Origin: Candidatus Fraserbacteria bacterium
Lineage (GTDB): Bacteria; Bipolaricaulota; Bipolaricaulia; RBG-16-55-9
Length of the DNA: 14,279 nt
Reading direction: 5' to 3'
Assembly (NCBI GenBank): GCA_037443265.1
Contig: JBBIOR010000032.1
Span: 1 to 14,279 of the forward strand
Below the pieces are notes generated by a model. It had not been told where the DNA came from and did no database searches. It saw only the letters and a program-made list of their open reading frames with translations. Positions 334 to 13,965 of this stretch are shown here, one piece after another (the first letter of the stretch is position 1; each line of letters starts with the position of its first letter). The translations under genes were made by a program, and so were the position numbers.

Positions 334-1008
334 ATGTGCGGCCGCTTCTCGCTGACCGTGGGCGATCGGGATATAGAAGATGAGTTCAAGGTGAAGATCG
401 GGTTTGACCGTCACCCGCGCTACAACATCGCTCCCACGCAAGAAGTCCTGGTGCTGCTGGATGACGGCACTGAGCGACGCATCGAAACCTTCCGCTGGGG
501 CCTGATTCCCCACTGGGCGCCGGATCCCAAGATTGGGAATAAGCTCATCAACGCCCGGGCTGAGACGATCTTTGAGAAGCCCTCGTTCCGCTCGGCAGCC
601 AAGGAGCGGCGCTGCCTCATTCTCGCAGATGGATTCTTCGAGTGGGCCAAGACCGAGAAGGAGAAGGGGAAGATCCCGCTGTATGTGCGGCTCAAATCTG
701 GAAAGCCTTTCGGGTTCGCTGGCTTGTGGGAATCCTGGCAATCTCCGGAGGGAGAAGAGGTCAAGAGCTGCGCGATCGTGACCACCGAGCCCAACGAGCT
801 GATGCTCAGCATTCACAACCGGATGCCGGTGATTGTTCAGAAGAAGCATGAAACAATCTGGCTCGACCCCACCATCAAGGATCCACAAGAGCTCATTGGT
901 GTGTTGCAGCCCTACCCACCGGAGGAGATGGAGGCTTTTCCGGTTTCCAAGCTGGTCAATTCCCCAGCCAATGACCGGCCGGAGTGCATTGTGCCGGTGA
1001 AACGCTAA
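334..1008 (+). CDS. SOS response-associated peptidase (SRAP/YedK/HMCES family, abasic-site protecting protein)
   Basis: Hallmark N-terminal MCGRF (catalytic Cys2, so the true start is ATG 334, not GTG 325), RYNIAPTQ, WGLIP, INARAET, RRCLILADGFFEW, FAGLW, IHNRMPVI, VSKLVNSP. Confidence 0.96.
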   Translation: MCGRFSLTVGDRDIEDEFKVKIGFDRHPRYNIAPTQEVLVLLDDGTERRIETFRWGLIPHWAPDPKIGNKLINARAETIFEKPSFRSAAKERRCLILADGFFEWAKTEKEKGKIPLYVRLKSGKPFGFAGLWESWQSPEGEEVKSCAIVTTEPNELMLSIHNRMPVIVQKKHETIWLDPTIKDPQELIGVLQPYPPEEMEAFPVSKLVNSPANDRPECIVPVKR

Positions 1009-1220
1009 CTCCGCAACAATTCTTGTCTTGATTTTCTCGCACCTCTCAGAGTTCTTCTCAGCGGATGCCCCTGTATGCGGCATCACCAAAATGGGATGCT
1101 ATGGGACTGGTCACCCAGCTGCACGGTGGGTGACCTCCTCAAATGGTGGAAAAGCCACCTATGTATTCGCGTTCGTGGGACCCATAGCCAGCCTTCTGGT
1201 GCAGGGCGACCTAGGTCACC

Positions 1221-1250
1221 TTGACAAAGGGGGGGACTCCTGACAATATT
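1221..1250 (+). promoter_or_regulatory. Putative sigma70 promoter for the membrane regulator gene
   Basis: Perfect TTGACA at 1221-1226. Imperfect -10 candidate CAATAT at 1244-1249 (17-bp spacer), ~115 bp upstream of the ORF at 1364. Confidence 0.45.
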
Positions 1251-1363
1251 GAGACAATAGGATCTATTTCGAGCTTTGCGGGAAACAGCGCAGCTATATT
1301 CCCTGCAAAGTGGTTGAGTGTAAAAGGGGATCTGGAGCAGCGCATCGCCGTAGAGGGTAAAGT

Positions 1364-2323
1364 GTGATGAACAACAAAAGAGCTTGGTTGTCCATCATGA
1401 GTTTAGTGTTGCTGTTTGCAGCGATTACGGCGCTTGCCATATACCTTCACACAGTGAGTCTGGAGCAAACCTTCATCGGAAGCGTGGCGTGGCTTGCCCA
1501 TGCCTTTGCGGATGAGGTGGCTCATCACACGGCCATGGCCAGTCAAGATGAACGGACTCTGCAAAAAGAATTAGCGATGTGGGCTGAGAAGGTGGTTCAG
1601 GAATACCTGCTTTACGCCCAAGTCGTCAAGGGCGGGCAATCCCTGGCAGAGGCCAAAGCCCCTCAGGCCATCAATGTGAAGCTGGACGTAGAAACTCCCT
1701 CTTCGGAGATGTCAGTCACCAAGGGACACCTAGCTGATGGGACGCCGTACTTAGATATGGTCAAGGCGCTGGAGCTGCCTGAGGGCAGCGATCAGTCAGA
1801 AAGCTATCTGCGCATAGGGGTCTCTCTGGCGCGGGTCAGTTCGGCGATTCAGACGGGCACATTGATCCTCGCACTAGCCAGCCTGGTGGGCATCTTCCTC
1901 GGTTCCCTCCTAATACTCCATCTTAGTCAGGCCAGGGGGGCACAAGAGTCGCAGCCAACGACTGCCTCTGAGCCGGCATCGGCCAGCGCCGGAGTTACTG
2001 GCAAGGAGCCAGGCAGGGCTAACTCCCTCTGGCAGGTTGGCCAGCTGTTGATTGACGATCGACGCAAAGAGGTGCACATCAACGGTCGTAGTGCTCAACT
2101 GACCCCGCGGGAATACGCCGTGTTGAAAGTGCTGGCTTCCGATCCCAATCGGGTCTTCTCCGATGAAGAGATCATTGCTCAGGTCTGGCCAGAGAATTCG
2201 TTGGCCTCCGCTGATGATGTCCGCAAATACATTCGCTTCTTAAGAAAGAAGCTGGAAGAAGACCCCAGAAATCCGCAAGTCATTATCACCATCAAGGGTT
2301 TCGGCTACAGGCTACAGGCCTAA
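1364..2323 (+). CDS. Membrane-anchored transcriptional regulator: two TM helices flanking an extracytoplasmic sensor domain, plus a C-terminal OmpR/PhoB-type winged-helix DNA-binding domain
   Basis: Hydrophobic segments at aa ~7-29 and ~166-187, then a low-complexity linker. C-terminus LLIDDRRKEVHING..QLTPREYAVLKVLASDPNRVFSDEEIIAQVW…VRKYIRFLRKKLEEDPRNPQVIITIKGFGYRL is a classic Trans_reg_C domain. No receiver Asp domain or His-kinase motifs. Start GTG 1364 or ATG 1367. Confidence 0.9.
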   Translation: MMNNKRAWLSIMSLVLLFAAITALAIYLHTVSLEQTFIGSVAWLAHAFADEVAHHTAMASQDERTLQKELAMWAEKVVQEYLLYAQVVKGGQSLAEAKAPQAINVKLDVETPSSEMSVTKGHLADGTPYLDMVKALELPEGSDQSESYLRIGVSLARVSSAIQTGTLILALASLVGIFLGSLLILHLSQARGAQESQPTTASEPASASAGVTGKEPGRANSLWQVGQLLIDDRRKEVHINGRSAQLTPREYAVLKVLASDPNRVFSDEEIIAQVWPENSLASADDVRKYIRFLRKKLEEDPRNPQVIITIKGFGYRLQA

Positions 2324-2330
2324 GGAACGA

Positions 2331-2395
2331 GCCTTCTACGCGCTTTTCACGGGATTTCCCCTCGTTTTTCCCCTGATCTCCATGGATTTTCCCCA
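2331..2395 (+). promoter_or_regulatory. Array of 5-6 degenerate direct repeats with ~11-bp period; candidate operator for an OmpR-type winged-helix regulator
   Basis: Units start at 2331 GCCTTCTACGC, 2342 GCTTTTCACGG, 2353 GATTTCCCCTC, 2364 GTTTTTCCCCT, 2375 GATCTCCATG, 2385 GATTTTCCCCA. Confidence 0.55.
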
Positions 2396-2417
2396 CTTCA
2401 GCATCCTATTTGTAGTG

Positions 2418-2439
2418 TTGAGGATCTAAAGATCTTCAA
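2418..2439. promoter_or_regulatory. Palindromic operator, probably the Rrf2 autoregulatory site
   Basis: TTGAGGATCT-AA-AGATCTTCAA (9/10 arm match), ending 11 bp upstream of the rrf2 start and directly after a TAGTGT -10-like hexamer (2413-2418). Confidence 0.6.
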
Positions 2440-2450
2440 GTGAGAATGAA

Positions 2451-2915
2451 GTGATCTACTCGAATGCTTGTGAATATGCGATTCGGGCATTGACCCATCT
2501 GGCCATGCATCCACAAGAGAAGCTGTGCAAGGAGATTGCAGCCGGTGAGAGGGTCCCCCGCTATTTCTTGGGCAAGATCTTGCAGAGCTTAGTGCGGGCG
2601 GGGCTGCTGCAATCAACGCCGGGGCGCAAGGGTGGCTTCACACTGGCTCGAGCGCCTGAACACATCACACTCTATGATATTAAAGCAGCCATAGACGGCA
2701 CTCGGGATCTCTGTGAATGCGCCATCGGGTTAGAGCAATGCTCTGATGAGACCCCTTGCCCGCTGCATGAGATCTGGAAACCTATCCGACTGCAGCTCAT
2801 GAACTATCTACAGAGAACTACGCTAGCGGAGCTGGCTGCAGCTGTACAGAAGAAAAGGGTTCATAGGGGCAAAGGCCGACGTGGGGCATGTCGAGCTAAC
2901 GGGCTGCAGCCCTGA
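2451..2915 (+). CDS. Rrf2 family transcriptional regulator (likely Fe-S binding)
   Basis: YSNACEYAIRAL, EIA…VPRYFLGKILQSLVRAGLLQSTPGRKGGFTLAR.PE.ITLYDI. C-terminal C-x6-C-x5-C-x2-H (CAIGLEQCSDETPCPLH) resembles the IscR 3Cys/1His ligand set. Confidence 0.95.
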   Translation: MIYSNACEYAIRALTHLAMHPQEKLCKEIAAGERVPRYFLGKILQSLVRAGLLQSTPGRKGGFTLARAPEHITLYDIKAAIDGTRDLCECAIGLEQCSDETPCPLHEIWKPIRLQLMNYLQRTTLAELAAAVQKKRVHRGKGRRGACRANGLQP

Positions 2916-2947
2916 TGACCGTTAGAGTTCTTCAAGGAGGACAAGCC

Positions 2948-4072
2948 ATGGCCAATGTGCGCAGAATTGCTCAGATGACGCGGCGGTCCTTCCTCAAATG
3001 GGGTCTGGCTATAAGCACGCTGGCCGGCCTCAGTGGGGGTGGATATGCCCCCCTTGTGGTAAGAGGGGAGGGATCTTTTGGGCGGGTCGGCGATGTAGTC
3101 GACTTCGCCCTGGAAAGCAGAGAGTGGCCGGGAGACTTCGGGTATGTGACCTTCCGCCTACAGCGCGGCTTCTACGACTGCCAACAGACCTTCTTCATCC
3201 GGACAGATTGCTCGGATCGATCGTTTGCAGAAGAGCAGGGGCTCCGATTCGTTCCCCGCTTAAGGCAAGCCCTTGGTGTTCAAGGGGTCGTTGGGGACTT
3301 GTATCTCTTCAAGGAGGATATAGTTGGAGACCGGGGCTACCGGCCTTTACCGGTGTTGAGCACCGTCCCCGGTCAGCCCGACTACAGCCCCCTCTTTAGG
3401 GTCCACTTCATTACCGAGGCGAAGTTCCCTGAACTTTTGGTCTCGGTGAAGGCGATCGAGGCGAGCGTACGAGTCGGCGAAGCCAAGGTCGAGACGACGG
3501 ACATCGTGGTCAATTATCCCGTGGTCCGGTGGCCTGTGATGACCCCCTCGCCCGAGGGGACCGGCGGCTACGTTGAGCTACCTCACGACACCACACTTGA
3601 AGAATATCTGGGAGGCGGGCAGCTGATCAGGCCGGTTGACCTGCTGAAGCAGACGGTCACCTTCAAGCTCCAGAAGTGTTTCCCCAATTTCCGCTACATC
3701 GTCACGGACGTCTCCATGGCCGATCCGGCGGCGAAGATGAACATCGCCTACTCACCCGGCTTAGCCCGGCTGTGGGAGGCGCGCAAGGCGCTCGCGCGGG
3801 TGTTTGTCTTCGGCAACGGAATCCCCGGTGGAGGTCCTATGGGCTTCCAGTCGAGCATCATGGACCCCAAGGTGACGAGCAATTTCTGGAGCCCGCTCTG
3901 GGAGCACTTCACCGTGCTATGGCAGGACCCGGCCAAGGCCGTGCTGATCACCGACGAGCGGGAGCTTCGCCGCAGGCTGGATCGAGGGGAGCTGGAGCGC
4001 TTCATCGGGACGCCCGCGACCCATCCCCAGGGCTTCGTAGTCAACTGCCCGATCCCGGTGGTGGAAGGGTGA
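2948..4072 (+). CDS. Tat-exported protein of unknown function with two 'SPL(W/F)…VVN(C/Y)P' repeat domains (resembles DUF7482-type proteins)
   Basis: AGGAGG RBS at 2935-2940 before ATG 2948. Twin-arginine motif TRRSFLK followed by an h-region. Internal duplication PDYSPLFRVHF…VVNYPVV / NFWSPLWEHF…VVNCPIP, plus a GGPMGFQ motif. The DUF label is from memory and unverified. Confidence 0.8.
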   Translation: MANVRRIAQMTRRSFLKWGLAISTLAGLSGGGYAPLVVRGEGSFGRVGDVVDFALESREWPGDFGYVTFRLQRGFYDCQQTFFIRTDCSDRSFAEEQGLRFVPRLRQALGVQGVVGDLYLFKEDIVGDRGYRPLPVLSTVPGQPDYSPLFRVHFITEAKFPELLVSVKAIEASVRVGEAKVETTDIVVNYPVVRWPVMTPSPEGTGGYVELPHDTTLEEYLGGGQLIRPVDLLKQTVTFKLQKCFPNFRYIVTDVSMADPAAKMNIAYSPGLARLWEARKALARVFVFGNGIPGGGPMGFQSSIMDPKVTSNFWSPLWEHFTVLWQDPAKAVLITDERELRRRLDRGELERFIGTPATHPQGFVVNCPIPVVEG

Positions 4073-4157
4073 GAACAGGGAGGTGATTAGCCGCTCAAAG
4101 GCAGTTCTAAGATCTACATAGCACTATATATAAAGGCAAGGGAGAGGTGACGCAAAA

Positions 4158-4802
4158 ATGAAACTCACGTTCAGAGTTGTCCAGTTGTTGCTGACCGTAG
4201 CGTTGATTGGCATCACAGGTGTCGTCGTGAGCAGCTTACAGCCGACGGAACGCGCGACTGCGGCCCAGCTATCGCCGACCTGCACGGCGAATGCTCCTGT
4301 CAGGGAGTTCTTCGTCGTCACGGGCGAATGGGACACCACACTCAAAGGCCATCTGAAGGATCGTGGGAAAGATCGCCAGAAGGATGAGAAACTGGAGCGC
4401 TACACCTTCGATCCCGCTACCATCATCGTTCACGTAGGGGATTGTGTGGTACTACGCATTCATGACCTCAAGGGAAGCCACCACAACGTGACCATTGAGG
4501 GTACAGGGATTGACTCTGCAGGCGCTCCGATCATCGACGATAGCGGCACAGCGATTGGCACAGCGCGCGCACGACCTAATCCAAACGCTGCCTTTGAAGG
4601 TCCTGCCGATCTAAAAGACGGTGAGTTCGCCCGCGGAGAACAGATCGAGCTCAGGTTCCAAGCGGATCAGCCTGGGACCTTCCGGATCATCTGTGAGGTC
4701 CACACCTTCATTGGCTCCAACGGCGAACTCAAGGGATACGATGACTCGGGCAAACCCATGGGTGGCCCGATGGTCGGTTATCTCGTCGTGTTGCCAAGAT
4801 GA
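4158..4802 (+). CDS. Secreted cupredoxin-domain protein with an extended copper-ligand loop
   Basis: N-terminal signal/anchor. FDPATIIVHVGDCVVLRI, H(H)NVTIEG, F.ADQPGTFRIIC-EV-H…M-VGYLVV give the cupredoxin fold with His/Cys/His/Met ligands. GAGGTGA RBS upstream. Confidence 0.88.
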   Translation: MKLTFRVVQLLLTVALIGITGVVVSSLQPTERATAAQLSPTCTANAPVREFFVVTGEWDTTLKGHLKDRGKDRQKDEKLERYTFDPATIIVHVGDCVVLRIHDLKGSHHNVTIEGTGIDSAGAPIIDDSGTAIGTARARPNPNAAFEGPADLKDGEFARGEQIELRFQADQPGTFRIICEVHTFIGSNGELKGYDDSGKPMGGPMVGYLVVLPR

Positions 4803-5413
4803 TGCCCGGGCATGGAGGTGGGAAGCCTGAGTTGCAGAAGGTGGCTAGGCTTCCCGCCTTCCTTCTTCGATTGAGTCAATTTAAGAAAACTCTCGCCATC
4901 GGCGTAGTCCTCTCGATCGTGATGGCCTTGTTCATCTGGATGCTGCAGCTCGTGGCAGAATATCCCGGTGTGGAGCGCACTTTCATCCTTCCCTCCTGGT
5001 TCACAGGCAGTGCGGAATCTCCTGTTCAGCCTTCACCACAACACGCGCAAGAGACTCTTGAAAAGAACGAGCTAGGTCAATCAGGGGGGTACACGGTCAT
5101 CAGGGGCACAGAAGTGGAGATCAACGAGAGGGAGTACAAGCTGGAGCCGAATCAGATCCGGATAGAAGTCAAGTCGCTCCCAGCCACGATCACCTTCGTG
5201 CTCCACAACCAGGGCCGCTTCTCCCACGACTTCGAGGTCAAAGGCCACGGGATCGACGCCAAAGCCCCCAAGTTCGGCCCCGGGCGCACCCAAGAGTTTG
5301 AGGTGACCTTCGGGGAGCCGGGCGAGTACGAGATCCTCTGCCCGTTGAGCAACCATGCCGAACGCGGCATGCGGGGGACCCTCGTCGTCAAGGGGGAGCA
5401 CGATGCCCGTTGA
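4799..5413 (+). CDS. Membrane-anchored type-1 (blue) copper protein / cupredoxin
   Basis: TM helix at aa ~32-52. EYKLEPNQIRI, FVLHNQG..SHDF, PGEYEILCPLSNHAERGMRGTLVV (C-x4-H-x4-M). ATGA overlap with the upstream gene. Confidence 0.92.
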   Translation: MMPGHGGGKPELQKVARLPAFLLRLSQFKKTLAIGVVLSIVMALFIWMLQLVAEYPGVERTFILPSWFTGSAESPVQPSPQHAQETLEKNELGQSGGYTVIRGTEVEINEREYKLEPNQIRIEVKSLPATITFVLHNQGRFSHDFEVKGHGIDAKAPKFGPGRTQEFEVTFGEPGEYEILCPLSNHAERGMRGTLVVKGEHDAR

Positions 5414-6812
5414 CATCCCAGGACTGGGCGCCCGCAACGCCCTGTGGCTTGTGGCCCAGCTCCACCTCTTCTTTGCGGCCTTTGTGCTCGGCGCGCCCAT
5501 TTTTATTGTTATCAGCGAGTATCTAGGCCTGCGTACCCAAGATCAAAGATACGAGCGCCTCGCGCAAGAGACGATGAAGGTCGTGGCCATTGCCTATTCG
5601 CTCACAGCCATCTTCGGCGTGCTCTTCGCCTTCGTGCTCATGGGGCCCTATCAGCCATTGACGAATTATCTATTTAAGACGCTCTATCCCCTCTGGACCC
5701 TATACGGGCTCTTTATTCTTTTAGAAACCGTCTGCATGTATCTCTATTGGTACACCTGGGGGCCTCTGAGCAAAACACCAGGGCGCAAGTGGGCGCACAT
5801 CAGCCTAGGCGTTCTTTTGAACATTTTGGGTACCATCGTGATGCTCCTCATGAACGCCGTGGGCGGCTTCATGAATACCCCTCCCAAAGAGATCGAAGCG
5901 GCAAGCCTATGGGAGATGGTCAACAACGCCGCCTGGTGGCCGCTGAATCTGCATCGCTTTCTCGGCAACGTGACCTTCGGGGGGTTTGTGGTCGCGCTCT
6001 TTGCGGCCTTTATGTTTCTGACGTCCCCAAAAGAAGAGGACAGAAAATTCTACGACTGGATGGGCTATATTGGGAATTTGATCGGCGTGGGCACGCTCAT
6101 GACGATGCCCCTGGCGGGCTATATTCTCTCCAAAGAACTGTTTCTTTACGACGCGCAGCTGGCAACGTTTATGATGGCCGACAAGCTCTCGGGGTATTTT
6201 GTGGTACAGGGGCTTCTGGTCGTGTTGCTCTTTCTGGGGGCCAATTTTTATATGTGGCTCTCCATGCAGCGCATCGAGGGGGGTCTTCGTTTTGAGCCGC
6301 ACATGAAGGCCATCTTCGCTGTGCTGTTGGCCGGGGGCATCATCTGGGTGGTGCCGCAGAACTTCTTTCCCGATCTTTTGGCCAAGCCCCCGCCGGGGGT
6401 GAGCGAGCAGGCTTTAATCCTGCCAGAGCGTTTTGCGTTCTTGGGTTTGATGGTGGCCAAAGCCTTGGCCGTGACAGCCATTATTATCATGACGTTTGTG
6501 ACGTATCTGCTCTATCGGCGGGCGCGCGCCACGGGCAAAATTTTATGGGGCCGCATCGACCCGATGGCCCAGTACGTTTTGATCTTCATCCCCGCCGTGG
6601 CCGTCTATTTGATGGGGCTGATGGGCGCGATCCGTGAACTTACTCGCATGGACTATCACATTTACGGCCTAATCAAAGACGTGACCCCTTACTGGTATAC
6701 CGTCACGTTGGGGCATTCGTCCATTATGGTGGCGATCACGACGATATTATTTTTCGTGCTGCAGGCGTTCATCTTTTGGGTTGGGTTTGTGATGGGGAAG
6801 GTTTATGAGTGA
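5403..6812 (+). CDS. Cytochrome bd-like oxidase subunit I (CydA fold; resembles the Nitrospira-type/OR-N bd-like oxidases)
   Basis: ATG 5403 after an AAGGGGGAG RBS; polytopic membrane protein. QLHLFFAAFVLG (E. coli CydA H19 equivalent), LLET (E107 equivalent), GFMNTP, NLHRFLGN (H186 equivalent), YDWMGYIGN, GLMVAK (possible M393 equivalent), GAIRELTR (E445/R448 equivalent). No recognisable Q-loop QP.KLAA.E motif. Confidence 0.85.
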   Translation: MPVDIPGLGARNALWLVAQLHLFFAAFVLGAPIFIVISEYLGLRTQDQRYERLAQETMKVVAIAYSLTAIFGVLFAFVLMGPYQPLTNYLFKTLYPLWTLYGLFILLETVCMYLYWYTWGPLSKTPGRKWAHISLGVLLNILGTIVMLLMNAVGGFMNTPPKEIEAASLWEMVNNAAWWPLNLHRFLGNVTFGGFVVALFAAFMFLTSPKEEDRKFYDWMGYIGNLIGVGTLMTMPLAGYILSKELFLYDAQLATFMMADKLSGYFVVQGLLVVLLFLGANFYMWLSMQRIEGGLRFEPHMKAIFAVLLAGGIIWVVPQNFFPDLLAKPPPGVSEQALILPERFAFLGLMVAKALAVTAIIIMTFVTYLLYRRARATGKILWGRIDPMAQYVLIFIPAVAVYLMGLMGAIRELTRMDYHIYGLIKDVTPYWYTVTLGHSSIMVAITTILFFVLQAFIFWVGFVMGKVYE

Positions 6813-7527
6813 TCCCGAAAAGAAGAGGAGCCTCTGGCAGCGCATCAAGGGCCCTGTCCTCTTTGCTGGGGTCAGTTTAGCAGTGATTTGGGGCTTGCTG
6901 CCTCTGGTGCCCCTGAGCTGGGGGGTTCACTTTGGCGTTGCTTATCTCATCTTTTTCAGCCTGGCCGTGCTCAGCGCGGCTCTCTTTTTCGTGCTGCTTA
7001 ACTGGGGGCCTATTGGAAAACCCAACTCCCCCTTGATGACGTTTGCCAGCATCCTGCTCGTCTATGTCGCTACCGTGGGAGGATTGGTGGCCTTCGGGCT
7101 CTGGTATTACCCCCAGTTTGAAATTCCCAAGCCCGTTGTTGAAAAAGAAAAGCCAGAGGAGACCGCAGCGGAGGAGCGGGGTAAAGAAGTCTTCTTGAGC
7201 CCCACGGTCGGCTGCTTTGCGTGTCATTCGATTGAAGCTTTAGGGATCAGAGGCGGGACGAGAGGGCCGGATCTTTCAGAGGTGGGCAAGCAGGCAGAAG
7301 TGCGCCAGCCAGGCATCTCTGCAGAAGATTATCTTAGAGAATCTATCGTGAACCCGTGGGCTTGCTTCACGCCGTTACCCGGCGGCGAACTCGTAGAATG
7401 CCAGCCTACGGCTGATCCTGCGAAGACGTATCCGCCACTCATGCCCCCCGGCTTCGGGGAACGTCTGAGCGAAGAGCAGCTGAATAATCTTATCGCGTTC
7501 TTGAAGAGCCTGAAAGGAGTGCCATGA
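6805..7527 (+). CDS. Membrane-bound monoheme c-type cytochrome (3 N-terminal TM helices)
   Basis: RGKEVF…GCFACHSI (CxxCH), GPDL, YLRESIVNP, distal Met in LMPP, LSEEQLNNLIAFLKSL. Overlaps the oxidase gene stop. Confidence 0.93.
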   Translation: MSDPEKKRSLWQRIKGPVLFAGVSLAVIWGLLPLVPLSWGVHFGVAYLIFFSLAVLSAALFFVLLNWGPIGKPNSPLMTFASILLVYVATVGGLVAFGLWYYPQFEIPKPVVEKEKPEETAAEERGKEVFLSPTVGCFACHSIEALGIRGGTRGPDLSEVGKQAEVRQPGISAEDYLRESIVNPWACFTPLPGGELVECQPTADPAKTYPPLMPPGFGERLSEEQLNNLIAFLKSLKGVP

Positions 7528-7961
7528 AACAGTCTAAAGGACTTGCAACTTTTGGACTTGAGCCTGTAAAAAGCGACATTGCCTGGGGGTGGGTCTTTTG
7601 GGGCTACGGGATCGCCCTGCTGGGAACGCTGATTGCAGGGGGGTTCGGGCTCTTCGCGATGAATAGGGGGATGTGGTGGGTGGCCAACTGGGGCCTAATT
7701 TTTCTGTTCATTGGGGGTTTTATAGCGGGCTTTTTCGCGAAAACTGCTGAGCCCTTGAATGGCGCCTTTATGGCCGTCTTCTACTTTGTGACGGCGACTC
7801 TAATTGTTTTTATCGGGGAATTTCTGGGCGTCTTGCCCGACCCGCTGCCCGGCCTGCCGCGCGGCGACTCGACGTTCTTCTTCGTCTGGCCGCTGGGGCA
7901 GCTGGTGGCCGCGACGCTGGGGGCGGTCTTGGGAGGATGGCTCTCCGCTAAATGGAGGTGA
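7524..7961 (+). CDS. Small 4-TM Gly-rich membrane protein of unknown function
   Basis: Four hydrophobic helices. ATGA coupling to the cytochrome c gene and GGAG RBS. Confidence 0.8.
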   Translation: MKQSKGLATFGLEPVKSDIAWGWVFWGYGIALLGTLIAGGFGLFAMNRGMWWVANWGLIFLFIGGFIAGFFAKTAEPLNGAFMAVFYFVTATLIVFIGEFLGVLPDPLPGLPRGDSTFFFVWPLGQLVAATLGAVLGGWLSAKWR

Positions 7962-7968
7962 GTGCGAG

Positions 7969-8862
7969 ATGAAGACATATCGGGAGATTGCGGGCGATGC
8001 CGGGTCGGATATTCTCGGTCAGGTAAAAGAACAACAGGCGCGCCTGCAAGCGCGCCTGGCGCAGATTACACACACAATTGCAGTCATGAGCGGCAAGGGC
8101 GGCGTGGGCAAAAGCGTCATTACAACGAACATGGCTGCTGCCTTGGCGATGCTGGGCCATCAAGTGGGCGTTCTGGATGCGGACATCAACGGGCCTTCTG
8201 TTGCCAAGATGTTTGGAGTGCGGGGTCAGACCCTCAAGGTTGGCAAAAACGGAGTCGTCCCTGTCCTTGGACCCTTGGGGATCAAAATCATCTCCATGGA
8301 TCTCCTGCTGTCCCGAGATGAGGCGCCGGTGGTCTGGGATGCCCCAGCGCAGCAAGATCCCTTCGTCTGGCGTGGCACGATAGAAGTTAGCACGCTTAGA
8401 GAATTTCTTGCCGATACGGACTGGGGAGAATTAGATTTTCTTTTGATCGATCTCCCTCCGGGCCCAGAGCGGTTGCCCAATCTCCCTGGCCTGCTTCCCG
8501 TATTGCACACAATCGTCGTGACCATCCCCTCGGAGGTCGCGCAGCTCACGGTGAAGAGATCCATCGCTTTAGCCCAGCAGCTGAAGGCAAAGCTTCTGGG
8601 ACTGATAGAGAACATGGCGGGCTATCTCTGCCGGAAGTGCGGCGCGTTAGGTGAGCTTTTCCCCAGCAGTGGGGAGGAAACCGTGAATGTCCTGGGCGTG
8701 CCCCTCTTGGGGAAGATCCCCTTCGATCCGCGCATCGCCCGTTGCTCAGATCGGGGCATCCCTTTCGTCCTCGAGCATAAAGACACAACAGCCGGAGAGG
8801 CGTTCGCCCAGATTGCCCAAAAGATCAAAAGAAACATCACTTTTGGGGAGGGTGAGCGATGA
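7969..8862 (+). CDS. mrp: Mrp/NBP35/ApbC family P-loop ATPase (Fe-S cluster carrier)
   Basis: GGAGGTG RBS before ATG 7969. Deviant Walker A SGKGGVGKS, LDADINGPS, ISMDLL, WRG, WGELDFLLIDLPPG, VVTIP, GLIENM..Y.CRKC, LGKIPFDP. Confidence 0.95.
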   Translation: MKTYREIAGDAGSDILGQVKEQQARLQARLAQITHTIAVMSGKGGVGKSVITTNMAAALAMLGHQVGVLDADINGPSVAKMFGVRGQTLKVGKNGVVPVLGPLGIKIISMDLLLSRDEAPVVWDAPAQQDPFVWRGTIEVSTLREFLADTDWGELDFLLIDLPPGPERLPNLPGLLPVLHTIVVTIPSEVAQLTVKRSIALAQQLKAKLLGLIENMAGYLCRKCGALGELFPSSGEETVNVLGVPLLGKIPFDPRIARCSDRGIPFVLEHKDTTAGEAFAQIAQKIKRNITFGEGER

Positions 8863-9251
8863 AGTTCTTATGTGTCGCGTGCGATGAGGCCATGAAGTAC
8901 GCGGAGGCCCAAGGGCCGGAGGCGGGCTCGTTGTCTGTTGTTTTTCACTGTCCCCACTGTGGCTATAGAGTGGCTCTGTTGACCAATCCATGGGAGACCC
9001 AATTGGTTCGCAGCTTGGGAGTTGTCATCGGTGGGCGGACGGTTCCCTCCGAGCCTTTGGAGTTAGTACGGACGACCCTGGCTGACAGCAAGCTTCTGTG
9101 GACGGCCGAGGCCGAGGAGCGCTTGGAGCGAGTGCCCGAGTTTGCGCGGGCCATGGCCCGCCAAAGCATCGAACGCTATGCCCGAGAGCAAGGCTACCAC
9201 GAGATCACTCCCCACGTGATGGATGAAGCCAGAGCCAAGCTCGGGCTGTAA
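8859..9251 (+). CDS. CxxC…CxxC (Zn-ribbon/metal-binding) protein with a C-terminal PCP_red (protochlorophyllide reductase C-terminal-like) domain
   Basis: CVAC…CPHC, then TNPWETQLVRSLGV.IGG, then WTAEAEERLERVPEFARAMARQSIERYAREQGYHEITPHVMDEAR (W-x2-EA…L.+VP.F.R…IE..A…G…IT pattern). ATGA overlap with mrp. Confidence 0.85.
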   Translation: MKFLCVACDEAMKYAEAQGPEAGSLSVVFHCPHCGYRVALLTNPWETQLVRSLGVVIGGRTVPSEPLELVRTTLADSKLLWTAEAEERLERVPEFARAMARQSIERYAREQGYHEITPHVMDEARAKLGL

Positions 9252-9254
9252 ACG

Positions 9255-10523
9255 ATGAGAAACAATTATCTCCCTAGAGTCGTCTGCTGGAACGTGACAC
9301 AAGCGTGTAATTTGCGCTGTCCCCATTGCTACTTGGCCGCAGGCACCCATGCTGCGCGCGAGCTTTCCACAGAAGAGGGCTTCCAGCTCATCAACCAGTT
9401 ACGTGAGCTTGGGACTCAGCTGCTCATACTCACGGGCGGCGAGCCCCTGCTGCGTCGCGATCTCTTCACGCTTGCCCGCCATGCCGCGGAGCGTGACCTG
9501 ATGGTCGTGCTAGGCAGCAATGGGACACTGCTTGACGAGAATGCTGTCAAAAGGCTTAAAGGGAGCGGTGTGCAGGGGGTAGGGATCAGCTTAGATTCCC
9601 TCGACCCGGAGAAGCACGATACCTTCCGAGGGCTCCAGGGCGCTTGGGAGAAGGCTGTCCGCGCCATTGACATGTGTGTGAGTCAGAGTTTAGAAGTCGC
9701 TGTGCAAACGAGCGTCCTGCCCATGAACTATGACGAAGTCCCACAAATGATCGAGCTTGCCTATGAGGAAGGTGCGCGGGCTTTTAACGCTTACTTTCTG
9801 GTCTGTACGGGCCGCGGCGAGCGGCTCACGGACATCACCCCCCAGCAGTACGAGGCGCTTCTTCATGATTTGATAGACGCACAAGTGCACTACGCAAAGC
9901 ACGGCTTCCTCGTGCGGGCCAAGTGCGCTCCGCACGTCAAGCGCTTGGCCTATGAACGCTTGAGCTTACACAGCGACAACTCGCCAGGGGCCGTGGGGCT
10001 TCTGGCCAGTGCGGGCTGCCCAGCAGGCACCAGCTATTTAAGAATCGGGCCCGAAGGCGACGTCACCCCCTGTCCTTATTTGCCCTTCGTGCTGGGTAAC
10101 GTCCGGCAGCAGGCATTGCATGAGATTTGGGAGGGGCAGCAGGGCCGCAGCCTCACTTTGCTGAAGCTGCGGGCTTTGGAGCTTCAAGGCCGCTGCGGGG
10201 TCTGTGAGTTCAAAAATCTCTGCGTCGGTTGTCGCGCGCGGGCTTTTGCTTTGACTGGAAATCTGCTCGGTGAAGATCCGTGGTGCACCTATCAGCCCAG
10301 GTGCCGACAGCCGTTCGCCCTTACGTGGACTCCCGAGGCACTGACGCGAATTGAAGAAATCCCTCCGTTCCTTCGGGAGCGCGTCAAGCAGGGTGTGGAA
10401 GCGTACGCGCGGGCGCGCGGCATTCGCCAAATCACCCCAGCGCTCTTGGCAGAGTTGCGAGTGGGCTCCTTCGGGAAAAGAGCAGCCACACAAGGGTCGC
10501 CGAGAAAGGATGAGCATGTATAA
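9255..10523 (+). CDS. Radical SAM/SPASM protein, AhbD/NirJ-like, fused to a C-terminal PCP_red domain
   Basis: WNVTQACNLRCPHCY (CxxxCxxC), ELST.E, LTGGEPLLR, SNGTL, ISLDS…HD.FRG..GAW, FLVCTGRG, KCAPH. SPASM Cys: CPAG, CPY, CGVC…C.GCRARA, DPWC. Tail WTPEALTRIEEIPPFLRERVK..VEAYARARG…IT. Confidence 0.93.
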   Translation: MRNNYLPRVVCWNVTQACNLRCPHCYLAAGTHAARELSTEEGFQLINQLRELGTQLLILTGGEPLLRRDLFTLARHAAERDLMVVLGSNGTLLDENAVKRLKGSGVQGVGISLDSLDPEKHDTFRGLQGAWEKAVRAIDMCVSQSLEVAVQTSVLPMNYDEVPQMIELAYEEGARAFNAYFLVCTGRGERLTDITPQQYEALLHDLIDAQVHYAKHGFLVRAKCAPHVKRLAYERLSLHSDNSPGAVGLLASAGCPAGTSYLRIGPEGDVTPCPYLPFVLGNVRQQALHEIWEGQQGRSLTLLKLRALELQGRCGVCEFKNLCVGCRARAFALTGNLLGEDPWCTYQPRCRQPFALTWTPEALTRIEEIPPFLRERVKQGVEAYARARGIRQITPALLAELRVGSFGKRAATQGSPRKDEHV

Positions 10524-11559
10524 GCGCATTCTGGTCGCGATCGACAACTCCAAATATGCCGTGCAGGCATCTGAGCTGGCCGTAGAACTGGCACAGAATT
10601 TCCAAGCACACCTCACCGGCGTCCACGTGACTAATGCCGGACTACACACATATGCTTTCCGTCGGCTCGAGGGAACCCTTCCCGTCCCGTATCAAAGCGA
10701 AGAAGTTTTGCAGCAACAACGAGAAATTCACGAAGATCTCATCCGTCGAGGACTCACGTTGATCAGCGATTCTTATTTTGAGCCGTTGCGGCAGCGAGCA
10801 CAAGCTGCAGGCATCCCTTGTGAGACCAAAGTTTTAGAGGGCCGGCACTACGAGGTGTTATCCGGAGAGATTACAGAGGGGGCCTACGATCTGGCTGCCT
10901 TCGGGCACTTGGGTCTTGGGGCATGCGAGCGCTCCATGCTCGGCGGCGTGGTGGAGCGGGTGGCTCGCCGCGTCAGAAAAGATCTTTGGGTTATCAAAGA
11001 GGCAAGGGCTCTGGAAGACGGGAAAATTTTGGTCGCTGTGGACGGGTCTGAATACTCCTTCTGGGCTCTGCGCAAGGCGATCGTCTTGGCGAAAAGATTC
11101 CAAGCTCAGCTACACGCTGTGCACGTCTTCGACCCGGATTTCCATCGTACGATCTTTCAAGAGCTGGTGGGTGTGCTCACCGAAAGAGCCGCAGAGGTTT
11201 TCGATTTCGAGGGTCAACAAGAGTTGCACGACAGAGTCATCGACAAGGGGCTCGAGCAGGTGGGGCAGCGCGTGCTACGTAGCTGTAAGCTAGCAGCAGA
11301 GCACAGTGGCATTCCCATTGCGGTGACGTTGCTTAAGGGCAAATTCTTCAAAAAGATCGTTGAGGCAACCGAAATCCTAGATCCCTCATTGCTGGTCATG
11401 GGCCGATTTGGCCGACACCGAGTCGAATCTTCAGATTTAGGGAGTACTGCAGAGAACGTGCTGCGCCTTGCGCCTTGTAGCGTCTTAATTGTGAGTACCG
11501 ACGTGCCTGAGACAATGAAGCACTTCAAGACTCCAACAGCCGTTGGAGCTGGGGGGTGA
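10516..11559 (+). CDS. Tandem universal stress protein (two USP domains, each with a His-containing helical insert)
   Basis: MYKRILVAIDNS…G(HL)GLG…LGGVVERVARR, then KILVAVDGSEYS…LLVMGRFG…LGSTAENVLRLAPCSVLIV. AAAGGA RBS favours ATG 10516 (alternative 10510). Confidence 0.93.
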   Translation: MYKRILVAIDNSKYAVQASELAVELAQNFQAHLTGVHVTNAGLHTYAFRRLEGTLPVPYQSEEVLQQQREIHEDLIRRGLTLISDSYFEPLRQRAQAAGIPCETKVLEGRHYEVLSGEITEGAYDLAAFGHLGLGACERSMLGGVVERVARRVRKDLWVIKEARALEDGKILVAVDGSEYSFWALRKAIVLAKRFQAQLHAVHVFDPDFHRTIFQELVGVLTERAAEVFDFEGQQELHDRVIDKGLEQVGQRVLRSCKLAAEHSGIPIAVTLLKGKFFKKIVEATEILDPSLLVMGRFGRHRVESSDLGSTAENVLRLAPCSVLIVSTDVPETMKHFKTPTAVGAGG

Positions 11560-11692
11560 GCTTGCTTGGCTGGCTCTTGTGCCGGCTGCTATACTCGCTT
11601 CTGGTCGCCGATGGGAGCGGCACGCACCCTGATCGATTTTGGAGCCACGCTCCAAGGGCCAACGGGAAGAACGAACGGGGGGAAGGAGAGCG

Positions 11693-12244
11693 ATGGGCCT
11701 CTACGTTTATGTGCTTTTGGGGTTGCTGGGCTTCGTCTGGAGCTTGCGGTACCCTCCGCCGCCGGCGGGTGAGGTTCGGACGGTGACCGTAGAGCTGTTC
11801 GAGTGGGGGATCGCGCTCGACCCGACGCCTTTGCCGGCCGGTCCGATCCGCTTTCGGGTGATCAATAGGGGCAGCATCGGCCATGCCTTTGCCTTGGCCC
11901 TCGTCGGGTCGGAGCGGGCGACTCGGGTGTTCGGACCCGGGCAGACTGAGATGGTGGACGCGGACCTCCTTCCGGGGAGGTATGCGATTTGGTGTCCCGT
12001 CCCTGGTCACCGAGAGCGGGGCATGGAGGCGGAGCTGCGGGTCTTGGCCGTCCCGCCCTCGGCCGGGAAGCGGGTGCTCCGGCTGAAGCGCTTTGACCGC
12101 AACGGGAACGATCTCCTCGACGATCCAGAGTTCTTTGCGATCATCGATGCCTGGGTCGCTAGGGAACTCGACGATGCCACCTTCTTCCTGGCCATCGACC
12201 TGTGGGTCGGTCGACGGCCGATCTCCTCGGTGGCCGGAATGTGA
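11693..12244 (+). CDS. Exported cupredoxin (type-1 Cu) with a C-terminal EF-hand/dockerin-like domain
   Basis: AAGGAG RBS before ATG 11693; hydrophobic N-terminus. FRVINRGSIGHAF, PGRYAIWCPVPGHRERGMEAELRV (C-x4-H-x4-M). Tail FDRNGNDLLDDPEFFAIIDAW…LDDATFFLAIDLW. Confidence 0.9.
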   Translation: MGLYVYVLLGLLGFVWSLRYPPPPAGEVRTVTVELFEWGIALDPTPLPAGPIRFRVINRGSIGHAFALALVGSERATRVFGPGQTEMVDADLLPGRYAIWCPVPGHRERGMEAELRVLAVPPSAGKRVLRLKRFDRNGNDLLDDPEFFAIIDAWVARELDDATFFLAIDLWVGRRPISSVAGM

Positions 12245-12321: not shown

Positions 12322-13148
12322 ACTTTCGCTATTGCCACAAGTCTTTCACGGAGTCAAGATGGCCTCCCCTTCCGGCTTGGGGACGGAGACAGGGGAGAGG
12401 AACGGGAAGACCCACAGAACAGAAGCAACCGTCCGAGGGCTGCCAGCCACCCCTTCACCTCCGTGGCCGTCTGGATCAACCTCCATCCCCATGCGTGCCG
12501 CACCTCTCCCAAGTTGGGCTGCTGCCCCACCAACTACCGACCTCAGCGGGTCAGAGCCGCCAATACATAGGCCAACAGCACCAGCTCCACCCAGCGCTCC
12601 AGACTCCGCTTCCCCCGGCAGCGGCAGTCCCCTAACCCAAAGTGCTCCTTGAGCGTCTTGAACATCGTCTCAATCCCCCAACGCCGCTTGAGGTGCCGCA
12701 GGATCTGGCTGCGGTTCCAGGAGAGTTCCGTGCAGATCACCGTGCGACGTCCCCGACCCCGCCCGCGAGGGACGATCCGCAGAGGGATCCCCAGGCCTTG
12801 CAGGTGCGCGATCGTCTCCTCCGAGACCTCCCCGGCCCGCCTCCCATCGGAGAGCCGGCGATTCTTCCGCACCCAACCCACCACGGGGAATCCGCGTTCC
12901 CGGGCTGCCTCCAGCACCGGAGCGCAGCAGTAGGTACTGTCGACCAACACCACCACCCGGCTGCCCGGCGGGGGCTCAAAGGTCCGGATCATCTCCGCTG
13001 CCAGCTCGGTCCGCTTGCGGAAGGCCTCCTCCTCCAAGAAGCGCTCGTTGACGTAGCCCCGCCAATCCCAGGGCACCACTTCCCAACCGGTCTCACCGAC
13101 GGACTCAACTTCCCCACCAAACGCCTCAGAAGTCAGGAGCTTGCCCAC
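12322..13148 (-). mobile_element. Degenerate IS701-like (DDE, IS4 superfamily) insertion sequence remnant
   Basis: Contains the transposase fragment. A possible distal end GCGAAAGT (minus strand) lies at 12322-12329. Boundaries are approximate and no paired TIR or target duplication was seen. Confidence 0.6.
12543..13148 (-). pseudogene. Truncated IS701-family transposase (C-terminal half only)
   Basis: PWDWRGY…FRKRTELAAEMI, VVVLVDSTY (second D), RKNR, RRWGIETMFKTLKEHFGLGDCRCR…ERWVELVLLAY (E motif). The N-terminal half is absent. The frame is broken by TGA (12543) and TAG (12534). Confidence 0.85.
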
Positions 13149-13250: not shown

Positions 13251-13739
13251 TTACGTAGACTCCGCCAGCTTTGCCAAGTGTTCCCTAACCCTCTTGAGCA
13301 GCTCCCCAGGCGGCACCACCTGAAGCGGTGCCGGAGGATCCGGGTAGTCGCTCGTGTTGAAGGTCACCAGATAATGACAACCGTTCAGCAGGGCCGCCGC
13401 CAGCACCGGGAGGTCTTTCGCCTGGGCCCGACCGGACCATGGCTTCAGGGCTGACGCCGGAGGATCCGGTACCCCTCTCAACGCTGCCTGTACCAGCGCC
13501 TGAAAGACCGGCAGAGCCTGCGGGAGCTTCTTCTTCAGGTTCCGCTCCACCTCCACCCGCACATAGGGACAGATGAGCCCGTCAATCAGGGTGAGCTCTG
13601 CAAGCTGCAGCAAGATGTAGCTGGCCGAGGAGTGGGTCTTCGAGGCCGAACCGGCAATGAGCACGTCGGCATCGAAGAAGACGCGCAGCTTACCGGGAGC
13701 GGCCGTAGCGCTCTCGGTAGAGTCGTCGGCGCTGCTCAT
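13251..13739 (-). CDS. PIN-domain toxin (VapC-like RNase) of a type II TA pair
   Basis: LRVFFDADVLIAG, EVERNL, KDLPVLAAAL, YLVTFNTSDY (acidic PIN tetrad). Overlaps the antitoxin 3' end. GAGG RBS before ATG 13739. Confidence 0.9.
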   Translation of the reverse strand: MSSADDSTESATAAPGKLRVFFDADVLIAGSASKTHSSASYILLQLAELTLIDGLICPYVRVEVERNLKKKLPQALPVFQALVQAALRGVPDPPASALKPWSGRAQAKDLPVLAAALLNGCHYLVTFNTSDYPDPPAPLQVVPPGELLKRVREHLAKLAEST

Positions 13740-13965
13740 CTAAGCCCTCGAGCAGGTCTTCTACGCTAAGCCCGGCAGCCTGGCGGAGTCGCTGGATCTC
13801 GCCCACCAGCTTGGGGACCAGGGGTACCTTCGGAGCCAGGATAAAGATTCCTTCGAGATCCAAGAGGGTAAGGGGCTCCCCCTCTTCCAAGCGATATTTC
13901 TTGCGGAGCTCCACGGGCAGGGTGAGAGTTCCACGGTTACGCAGCGTGAGCGTCTTGGTGTTCAT
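13690..13965 (-). CDS. AbrB/MazE/SpoVT-family antitoxin
   Basis: LRNRGTLTLPVELRKKYRLEEGE.L…EGIFILAP swapped-hairpin motif. Lies directly upstream of the PIN gene. Confidence 0.92.
   Translation of the reverse strand: MNTKTLTLRNRGTLTLPVELRKKYRLEEGEPLTLLDLEGIFILAPKVPLVPKLVGEIQRLRQAAGLSVEDLLEGLDEQRRRLYRERYGRSR

Follow-up and report, generated by a model that had tools for sequence, protein, structure and literature searches.

In the 14,279-nucleotide stretch analysed here (the window; positions 1 to 14,279 of contig JBBIOR010000032.1, Candidatus Fraserbacteria), the gene at 5403..6812 on the forward strand encodes a compact CydA-like catalytic subunit of 469 residues with 11 predicted membrane helices. 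Sequence comparison places it in a compact single-gene clade within the published OR-N ("bd-like") family, a kind of enzyme already known. The features of the subunit are largely published, and the value of the locus lies in its compact operon and in a link to two genes, for a tandem universal stress protein (Usp) and a radical SAM enzyme, which co-occur with OR-N genes in several phyla and are candidates for dedicated, putative maturation factors. The OR-N family, without a quinol site, was defined by Murali, Gennis and Hemp (10.1101/2021.01.16.426971). An earlier note on this DNA, made from the sequence alone, had implied that a CydA lacking both Q-loop and CydB was new, and that implication is not supported. 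The locus fits the published description of OR-N: the quinol site is missing, the subunit carries no heme c, and alternative donors are encoded in the operon.

The catalytic subunit and its place in the OR-N family

The open reading frame begins with an ATG downstream of a GGAG site and overlaps the stop of the preceding gene. Its predicted CydA fold and retained His19 equivalent make the protein a member of the cytochrome bd superfamily. PF01654 (Cyt_bd_oxida_I) matches residues 11-246 with 58.1 bits (cut-off 26.2). The AlphaFold2 model, built from 119 relatives (predicted local distance difference test, pLDDT, 89.9; predicted template modelling score 0.88), has 11 long helices; its ten best Foldseek matches were all CydA/AppC chains (E 9e-9 to 1e-5), and such chains also headed the VIA matches (Z 27.7-30.2, root-mean-square deviation 3.4-4.0 Å over 342-357 residues). 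The agreement of Foldseek, VIA and PF01654 bears out the CydA fold claimed in the earlier note.

When the protein was compared as a single sequence with E. coli CydA, the alignment covered its first 131 residues only (28.8%), and a profile of 34 canonical CydA proteins was therefore needed; the profile-profile alignment with OR-N scored 99.8%. Residue equivalences are drawn from this profile alignment because the canonical outgroups were unreliable past helix 4 in the MAFFT alignment used for the trees. In E. coli CydA numbering, H21 corresponds to H19, H184 to H186, M350 to M393 (column confidence is low around M350), E412 to E445 and R415 to R448, so that the heme-ligand equivalents proposed earlier are in register. 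K59 likewise corresponds to K57, Y101 to E99, E108 to E107 and H132 to H126. PMC6853902 describes what H186/M393, E99, E445, K252/E257 and K57 do in E. coli, and the OR-N preprint gives the role of H19. Ten residues (H21, Y101, E108, H184, R185, M258, M350, K353, R411 and R415) were invariant in 119/119 relatives. Retention of the ligands is weakened at one site, as position 412 carries Glu in 102 of the 119 close relatives and Ser in the other 17, and within the 27 relatives that share at least 70% identity it is the sole column splitting the Glu from the Ser group. Since E412 is replaced by Ser in near-identical proteins without a covarying column, this third-heme ligand is dispensable in them and three hemes are not assured. 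The Betaproteobacteria- and Acidobacteria-titled copies (L004-L010), with Ser at the E445 site and no covarying change, offer a natural pair regarding the third heme.

The claim that the Q-loop is lacking came with its check named beforehand, the K252/E257 equivalents, and these are absent. Their sites hold L253/M258 in the profile alignment, or Q252/M257 in a one-gap register, and no KLAA.E motif was found in the protein. The loop is replaced by membrane helices at 263-289 and 294-316, with hydropathies of 2.04 and 1.76 (at most 0.96 for the E. coli loop). A single Glu stands at the E99/E107 positions, as had been noted, with E108 at the E107 site; the supposed lack of any E99 equivalent holds insofar as the Glu is gone, but the site is occupied by the invariant Tyr101 rather than simply missing.

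The stated absence of a CydB partner was upheld. A PF02322 (CydB) search of the genome, which is 88% complete, gave 0 matches (9/14 controls positive), and neither CydB nor a second CydA-like gene occurred in any of 17 related loci, the tblastn control having detected CydB in 29/30 canonical loci. Within the same 88% of the genome no second CydA-like gene was found, leaving the 5403..6812 product as the only one; a partner OR-N gene elsewhere in it was also sought there and not found. Of the 16 related genomes that carry the compact gene, which are incomplete metagenome-assembled genomes (MAGs), 7 have a longer OR-N copy elsewhere and in 9 none was seen. The marks of a canonical quinol oxidase (qOR), namely a Q-loop with K252/E257, a CydB or CydA' partner and the E99+E107 pair, are thus wanting, and the subunit, whose single Cys is at 111, has no CxxCH, the hallmark of OR-C.

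At least 1623 relatives were present among 8000 candidates scored. In trees of 132 rows, the compact clade (463-546 residues) had a support of 98.1 in the Shimodaira-Hasegawa-like approximate likelihood ratio test, which was computed for 64 of the rows, and was sister to proteins of 516-700 residues (99.7; joint support 100). The sister clade includes a Nitrospirota copy, 42% identical over its whole length, that lies upstream of a cytochrome c gene and a Rieske/cytochrome b pair. By gene context this copy is bd-like_1 of PMC6606698, and context together with PMC12342949 suggests that the bd-like_1 type is OR-N1; the compact clade is sister to this type, not nested within it. Reference sequences were labelled by gene context rather than by published accessions, and N3 and N4 references could not be identified. 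Tyr occupied the position of Tyr101 in 38/38 compact, 13/13 N1-like and 54/57 N2-like rows, whereas the short paired forms had Glu at the E99 site in 12/19. The idea that loss of E99 is special to this protein is accordingly rejected, Tyr standing there in 105/108 rows of the N1/N2-like clade. Altered active-site chemistry, as the earlier note proposed, is plausible given the change of E99 to Tyr, but would be a trait of that whole clade. The E445 site was Ser in 9/13 N1-like and 47/57 N2-like rows.

Like the protein studied here, the bd-like_1-type OR-N has no quinol site, CydB or subunit heme c motif, retains His19, and is followed directly by a homologous membrane cytochrome c gene; Y101/E108, R185, M258, D260, M350 and K353 are common to both. 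The Nitrospirota proteins of this type are longer, however (567-587 residues), and the N1/N2 forms have 14 helices according to the OR-N preprint, so the helix count of OR-N1 (~14) differs from the 11 in our model. Unlike the bd-like_1 type, the present gene is the only CydA-like gene of its genome and locus, with no adjacent Rieske/cytochrome b or second bd-like gene, and Usp and radical SAM genes lie inside the operon. The E445 site is mostly Glu in the compact clade and mostly Ser in the bd-like_1 type, and a four-helix protein encoded here was not found in 5 Nitrospirota genomes.

More distant systems share part of these traits. The bd-like oxidases in the nitrite oxidoreductase (NXR) clusters of Nitrospina, Nitrospira and anammox bacteria (PMC3578206, PMC6606698), with which TO_1 of Ca. 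Manganitrophus was grouped (10.1101/2021.11.15.468770), show the same Q-loop replacement by membrane helices, loss of quinol residues and clustered cupredoxins and c-type cytochromes, all of which PMC3578206 already described in 2013. They differ in having 14 helices and ~620-690 residues, in being 33-39% identical and linked to NXR or Mn-oxidation genes, and in carrying Gly at 260 (Asp here) and Ser at the E445 site. Canonical bd oxidases (E. coli CydAB, G. thermodenitrificans, M. smegmatis bd-II) have the same fold (Z ~30) and heme-ligand positions at 13-17% identity, but also the Q-loop with K252/E257, E99 and CydB, all missing here. Paired short OR-N forms (N3/N4/N5 a+b) and archaeal CydAA' likewise have ~10 helices and no CydB; in contrast to the single Y101 gene here, they consist of two side-by-side paralogous genes on a separate branch, the 'a' gene keeping Glu at the E99 site. 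No literature description of the single-gene 11-helix form, its operon or its Usp/radical SAM link was found in a search that left subscription journals largely uncovered, and the reference alignments of the OR-N preprint may include the clade.

Electron entry and the helper genes

The gene after the catalytic subunit (6805..7527; like all genes of the operon, on the forward strand) encodes a membrane-anchored monoheme cytochrome c with CxxCH at 137-141 and M213. The protein is predicted to be bound as a subunit and is a homolog of the cytochrome that follows Nitrospirota bd-like_1-type genes. Its gene comes next in 16/16 loci with downstream DNA. A model of the complex (subunit, four hemes, cytochrome c) scored 0.64, against 0.00 for the best of 3 controls; the mark set for this score is passed by 116/157 solved complexes and 2/215 mismatched pairs, counts that apply roughly here, with our own alignments and heme ligand included. 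The runs shared at least 51% of contacts, with partner pLDDT of at least 75. In the part of the interface predicted with confidence, residues 46-108 of the cytochrome c contact residues 203-207, 261-340, 386-402 and 432-451 of the subunit, and the hairpin standing in for the Q-loop is at its centre. The model thereby supports a cytochrome c held by membrane helices on that hairpin, which speaks to binding rather than to the path of transfer. Together with the fixed gene position, the predicted docking favours the suggestion of the earlier note that electrons enter from the adjacent cytochrome c rather than from quinol; the hypothesis of a cytochrome c-fed OR-N enzyme is already in print (10.1101/2021.01.16.426971; PMC10839748; PMC3578206).

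Two cupredoxins precede the subunit. The first (4158..4802), exported or anchored, has a C-x2-H...M motif like that of type-1 copper and is found in 12 related loci; the second (4799..5413; PF13473/PF00127), membrane-anchored with a C-x4-H-x4-M motif, is a candidate electron donor present in 14 related loci. A Rieske/cytochrome b-like pair seen by eye elsewhere in the genome could feed periplasmic carriers. In one Dehalococcoidia-titled MAG, the CydA-like gene is immediately preceded by an open reading frame (L016:2-691) that looks SCO/SenC-like by eye, which fits cupredoxin copper loading.

Helices 2-3 of the subunit, which in canonical enzymes flank the CydA/CydB proton channel (PMC8951039), lie outside the predicted cytochrome c interface, and the face they form, normally under CydB, is free in the model. 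It may be covered by a second copy of the same subunit, by the 145-residue four-helix protein or by nothing; a second copy is our preferred, putative choice, held at a little short of even chances. The four-helix membrane protein (7524..7961), a candidate accessory subunit without His and with weak likeness to DUF3792, is encoded in 15/15 loci with enough downstream DNA. It may still be a half-CydB, or stand for the helices absent relative to the longer Nitrospirota copy, although no bd chain was among its fold matches (best Z 7.0), no sequence likeness was seen, and its Atlas matches were under 0.9.

Further downstream are the two putative maturation genes. The radical SAM/SPASM enzyme (9255..10523), of the NirJ/AhbC/AhbD group, is a candidate heme- or Tyr-modifying maturase, and the tandem Usp protein (10516..11559; PF00582 x2) a candidate heme chaperone or assembly factor. 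In the Usp, two His pairs (H44/H72 and H210/H238) are placed symmetrically and kept in at least 30 of 31 homologs, and other Usp proteins of the genome match it only at ~1e-9. It is present in 13 related loci and in the continuation of a fourteenth. Among 61 Nitrospirota genomes, the tandem Usp occurred in 18/18 with OR-N genes and in 1/43 without, mostly on another contig or distant from the OR-N genes and fused to PCP_red domains. Of 121 Chloroflexota genomes 9 had it, all with Q-loop-less CydA-like genes; in a tenth OR-N genome (G012) the Usp is cut by a contig end, and G344, whose weak CydA-like match has CxxCH, has none. The Usp lay beside canonical CydA in 0/30 loci, a weak control because these loci span only ~4 kb. 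In N. moscoviensis, a 2106-bp 'modular' Usp, by its length a possible member of the tandem Usp family, ranked 152 in expression and bd-like_1 ranked 112 (PMC6606698).

The radical SAM protein scored 310 bits against NirJ2 and 301 against AhbD, both below the cut-off of 500. At 300 bits or more, matches were found in 16/18 Nitrospirota OR-N genomes compared with 1/43 others, and identities were bimodal, at 46-52% beside Usp (16/18 OR-N genomes and G034) and 33-38% elsewhere; one further OR-N genome (G028) has a radical SAM fragment. Across the 121 Chloroflexota genomes, a high-scoring match was limited to one Tyr101-type genome, and none of the 9 Glu/Glu-type genomes, those with paired short OR-N genes, had an OR-N-type radical SAM. 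In a tree of 37 rows (midpoint root; labels by eye from neighbouring genes), the OR-N-linked enzymes formed one clade (86.6), apart from hemE- or ahb-linked copies and sister to AhbC-like proteins. As the genome encodes HemE, ferrochelatase and ChdC, with no match to AhbA/B, the radical SAM enzyme would not be needed for ordinary heme b under oxic conditions.

Several arrangements around these helpers were seen in passing. Chloroflexota paired short OR-N genes lie apart with other genes between them, apparently Rieske and cytochrome b (by eye; L134-L136, L138, L140, L141), often with Usp adjoining, and in L139 (G252) an adjacent CydA-like pair beside Usp, each with one CxxCH and without an M350 equivalent, may be OR-C-like. 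A conserved gene of 540-550 residues precedes the Usp-radical SAM pair in two Nitrospirota genomes (L146, L147), and in L152 the radical SAM gene is followed by one that looks by eye like a porphyrinogen oxidase. At G000:C14:15437-17001, an Rrf2 paralog is followed by another radical SAM/SPASM gene outside the OR-N-linked clade.

Proposed mechanism and rival explanations

Given the above, we lean, if only slightly, towards an O2 reductase fed by cytochrome c and cupredoxins, most likely at low oxygen, in which Tyr tunes the H21 heme and which has maturation factors of its own. The substrate, the direction of electron flow, the number of hemes, the oligomer and the functions of the helpers are all inferred. 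Periplasmic cupredoxin(s) would pass electrons to the membrane-anchored cytochrome c, predicted to bind at the hairpin, and from there they would reach the low-spin heme whose ligands are, by alignment, H184/M350. A third heme at the E412 site might serve as a relay, although the dispensability of E412 in close relatives makes this uncertain. Electrons would arrive at the heme bound by H21, where Tyr101 takes the place of the distal Glu99 and could act as ligand, redox partner or cross-link. Protons would come from the cytoplasm through K59/E108, the kept equivalents of K57/E107, and the tandem Usp with its two His pairs and the OR-N-specific radical SAM enzyme would deliver or tailor the heme site.

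A number of points weigh against this proposal. PMC10839748 and PMC12342949 state that O2 reduction is undemonstrated for any OR-N enzyme and that OR-N function and affinity are untested, and our literature search found no such demonstration. In E. coli, mutation of E99 costs the enzyme heme d or the active site (PMC6853902), and in a model of M. smegmatis bd-II the E99 equivalent must dissociate before O2 binds (10.1101/2025.06.23.660515); given this importance in canonical bd, Tyr at that site may mean a different reaction. The E445 site is Ser in part of the close relatives and in most N1-like and N2-like rows. The genome carries a CtaD-like oxidase, and a heme-copper-superfamily subunit is found in 16/17 cassette-bearing genomes, which would make O2 reduction by the OR-N enzyme redundant. 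In the complex model the heme c domain makes no low-error contacts. Regarding the helpers, G035 has OR-N genes and no radical SAM match, while G034 has Usp and radical SAM with no OR-N gene found; support for the radical SAM clade is moderate (86.6, 37 rows, midpoint root); and the co-occurrence counts span related genomes and so overstate independence, though the pattern repeats in separate phyla.

Some of these points also fit the chief rival, a repurposed fold: the protein would then serve as a module for electron transfer or reduce some other small ligand (NO, peroxide), and Tyr101 would close or retune the H21 heme. We regard this as rather unlikely. Tyr in place of the distal Glu across the N1/N2-like clade, with the E445 site mostly Ser, is in its favour, as are the other oxidases of the hosts and the Rrf2 regulator upstream; an alternative-complex-III-like function was already proposed in PMC3578206, and the ActC/F subunits of alternative complex III have the same fold (Z 17.6-19.4). 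A 46%-identical relative is also encoded within a molybdopterin-oxidoreductase cluster (L019). Yet H21, E108, K59, H184 and M350 are kept, the operon has no partner catalytic subunit, and Nitrospira express such genes highly without a canonical heme-copper oxidase (PMC6606698). The L019/L091 locus itself (928-7723, from a MAG titled Nitrospirae) sets a 516-residue N1-like subunit amid tetraheme and diheme cytochromes c, a 4Fe-4S protein and an 866-residue molybdopterin oxidoreductase, a DMSO-reductase-type cluster. Still less credible, and in our estimate very improbable, is a quinol oxidase whose quinol site has moved into the new membrane hairpin: the invariant M258, D260 and K261 are close to the old site, and mycobacterial bd has a second menaquinone site near heme b595 (PMC8951039), but K252/E257 are absent, the hairpin is the predicted cytochrome c dock, and cupredoxins and cytochrome c are constant neighbours.

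The helpers could instead be generic while the enzyme works as proposed. The radical SAM protein would then be an O2-independent coproheme decarboxylase, in the role of AhbD, supplementing heme b at low oxygen, and the Usp a co-regulated stress protein. ChdC needs peroxide, making an anoxic alternative useful; the best NCBIfam matches of the radical SAM protein are NirJ2 and AhbD, and the Atlas label for the Usp is merely Usp. However, the radical SAM enzyme has AhbC-like proteins as its sister group and lies apart from the hemE/ahb-linked AhbD-like enzymes, while the His pairs of the Usp are invariant in both domains and the Usp tracks OR-N even where unlinked, and we give generic helpers a minor probability. 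Of the O2 reductase with dedicated factors a wider version can be put forward as a doubtful conjecture: Tyr101-type OR-N enzymes, including the presumed Nitrospira terminal oxidase, would have an unusual active site, with either a tailored heme or a Tyr/heme cross-link made by the radical SAM enzyme, which this dedicated maturase would build and a bis-His tandem Usp chaperone would deliver. The Nitrospirota helper genes, being distant, would have been overlooked, and the present operon would be the minimal self-contained form, encoding one catalytic subunit, perhaps homodimeric, together with its cytochrome c, its cupredoxins and the maturation factors.

The operon, its neighbours and its significance

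The operon has the look of an expression unit complete in itself. A gene for an Rrf2-family regulator (2451..2915; PF02082, E 1e-33) begins the tightly packed run and also occurs in the closest relative, L003; no Rrf2 gene lies upstream of the Betaproteobacteria-titled copies. A TAT-signal DUF7482 protein (2915..4072; PF24298), between the Rrf2 gene and the cupredoxins, is shared among related loci only with L003 and is not core. Between the four-helix and radical SAM genes are an optional Mrp/ApbC-like Fe-S carrier ATPase (7969..8862, start at 7969; PF10609) and a small Cys-motif protein with a PCP_red domain (8859..9251; PF08369), which in other lineages is fused to Usp or radical SAM. A third cupredoxin-like protein (11639..12244), with a C-x4-H-x4-M motif and a weak SoxE match, is of uncertain link to the operon. 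The recurring order is cupredoxin(s), CydA-like, cytochrome c, 145-residue protein, optional Mrp and PCP_red, Usp and radical SAM, kept in MAGs titled Fraserbacteria, Betaproteobacteria, Acidobacteria, Chloroflexi and Deinococcus; in one MAG a frameshift, due to either assembly error or decay, breaks up the CydA-like gene (L011:3146-4562). The cassette is present in 3/151 genomes of the source phylum and the Betaproteobacteria-titled copies are 84-87% identical, which suggests horizontal transfer of the operon. A scan of the window for promoters and terminators gave chance-level results (4 vs 3.6; 18 vs 11, standard deviation 3.6). Among the sequencing runs listed, none was an RNA data set holding the sequence, which says nothing on expression.

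Upstream on the same strand, a membrane protein with a C-terminal OmpR-type DNA-binding domain (1364..2323; PF00486), likewise upstream in L003, L014 and L015, is a possible regulator, and an SOS response-associated peptidase (SRAP) gene lies at 325-1008. On the reverse strand, a DDE transposase gene (12543-13148) stands just past the operon end, followed by an ordinary toxin-antitoxin module of a PIN-domain protein with a MazE/AbrB-type antitoxin (13251-13965).

In nitrite- and manganese-oxidising Nitrospirota, O2 reduction has since 2010 rested on a putative bd-like protein inside large clusters. Here a single catalytic gene stands together with its donors and two helpers that co-occur with it, and this compact operon is a clonable unit for addressing O2 reduction, the heme content and what Tyr101 does. 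Should the helpers be generic or the enzyme redundant, it would be one more member of a described family. As candidate maturation genes, however, the Usp and radical SAM genes could defeat heterologous expression by their absence. The two helpers are found alongside the family in several phyla and may be required for its assembly. Their link to OR-N and the compact operon make the open OR-N question testable.

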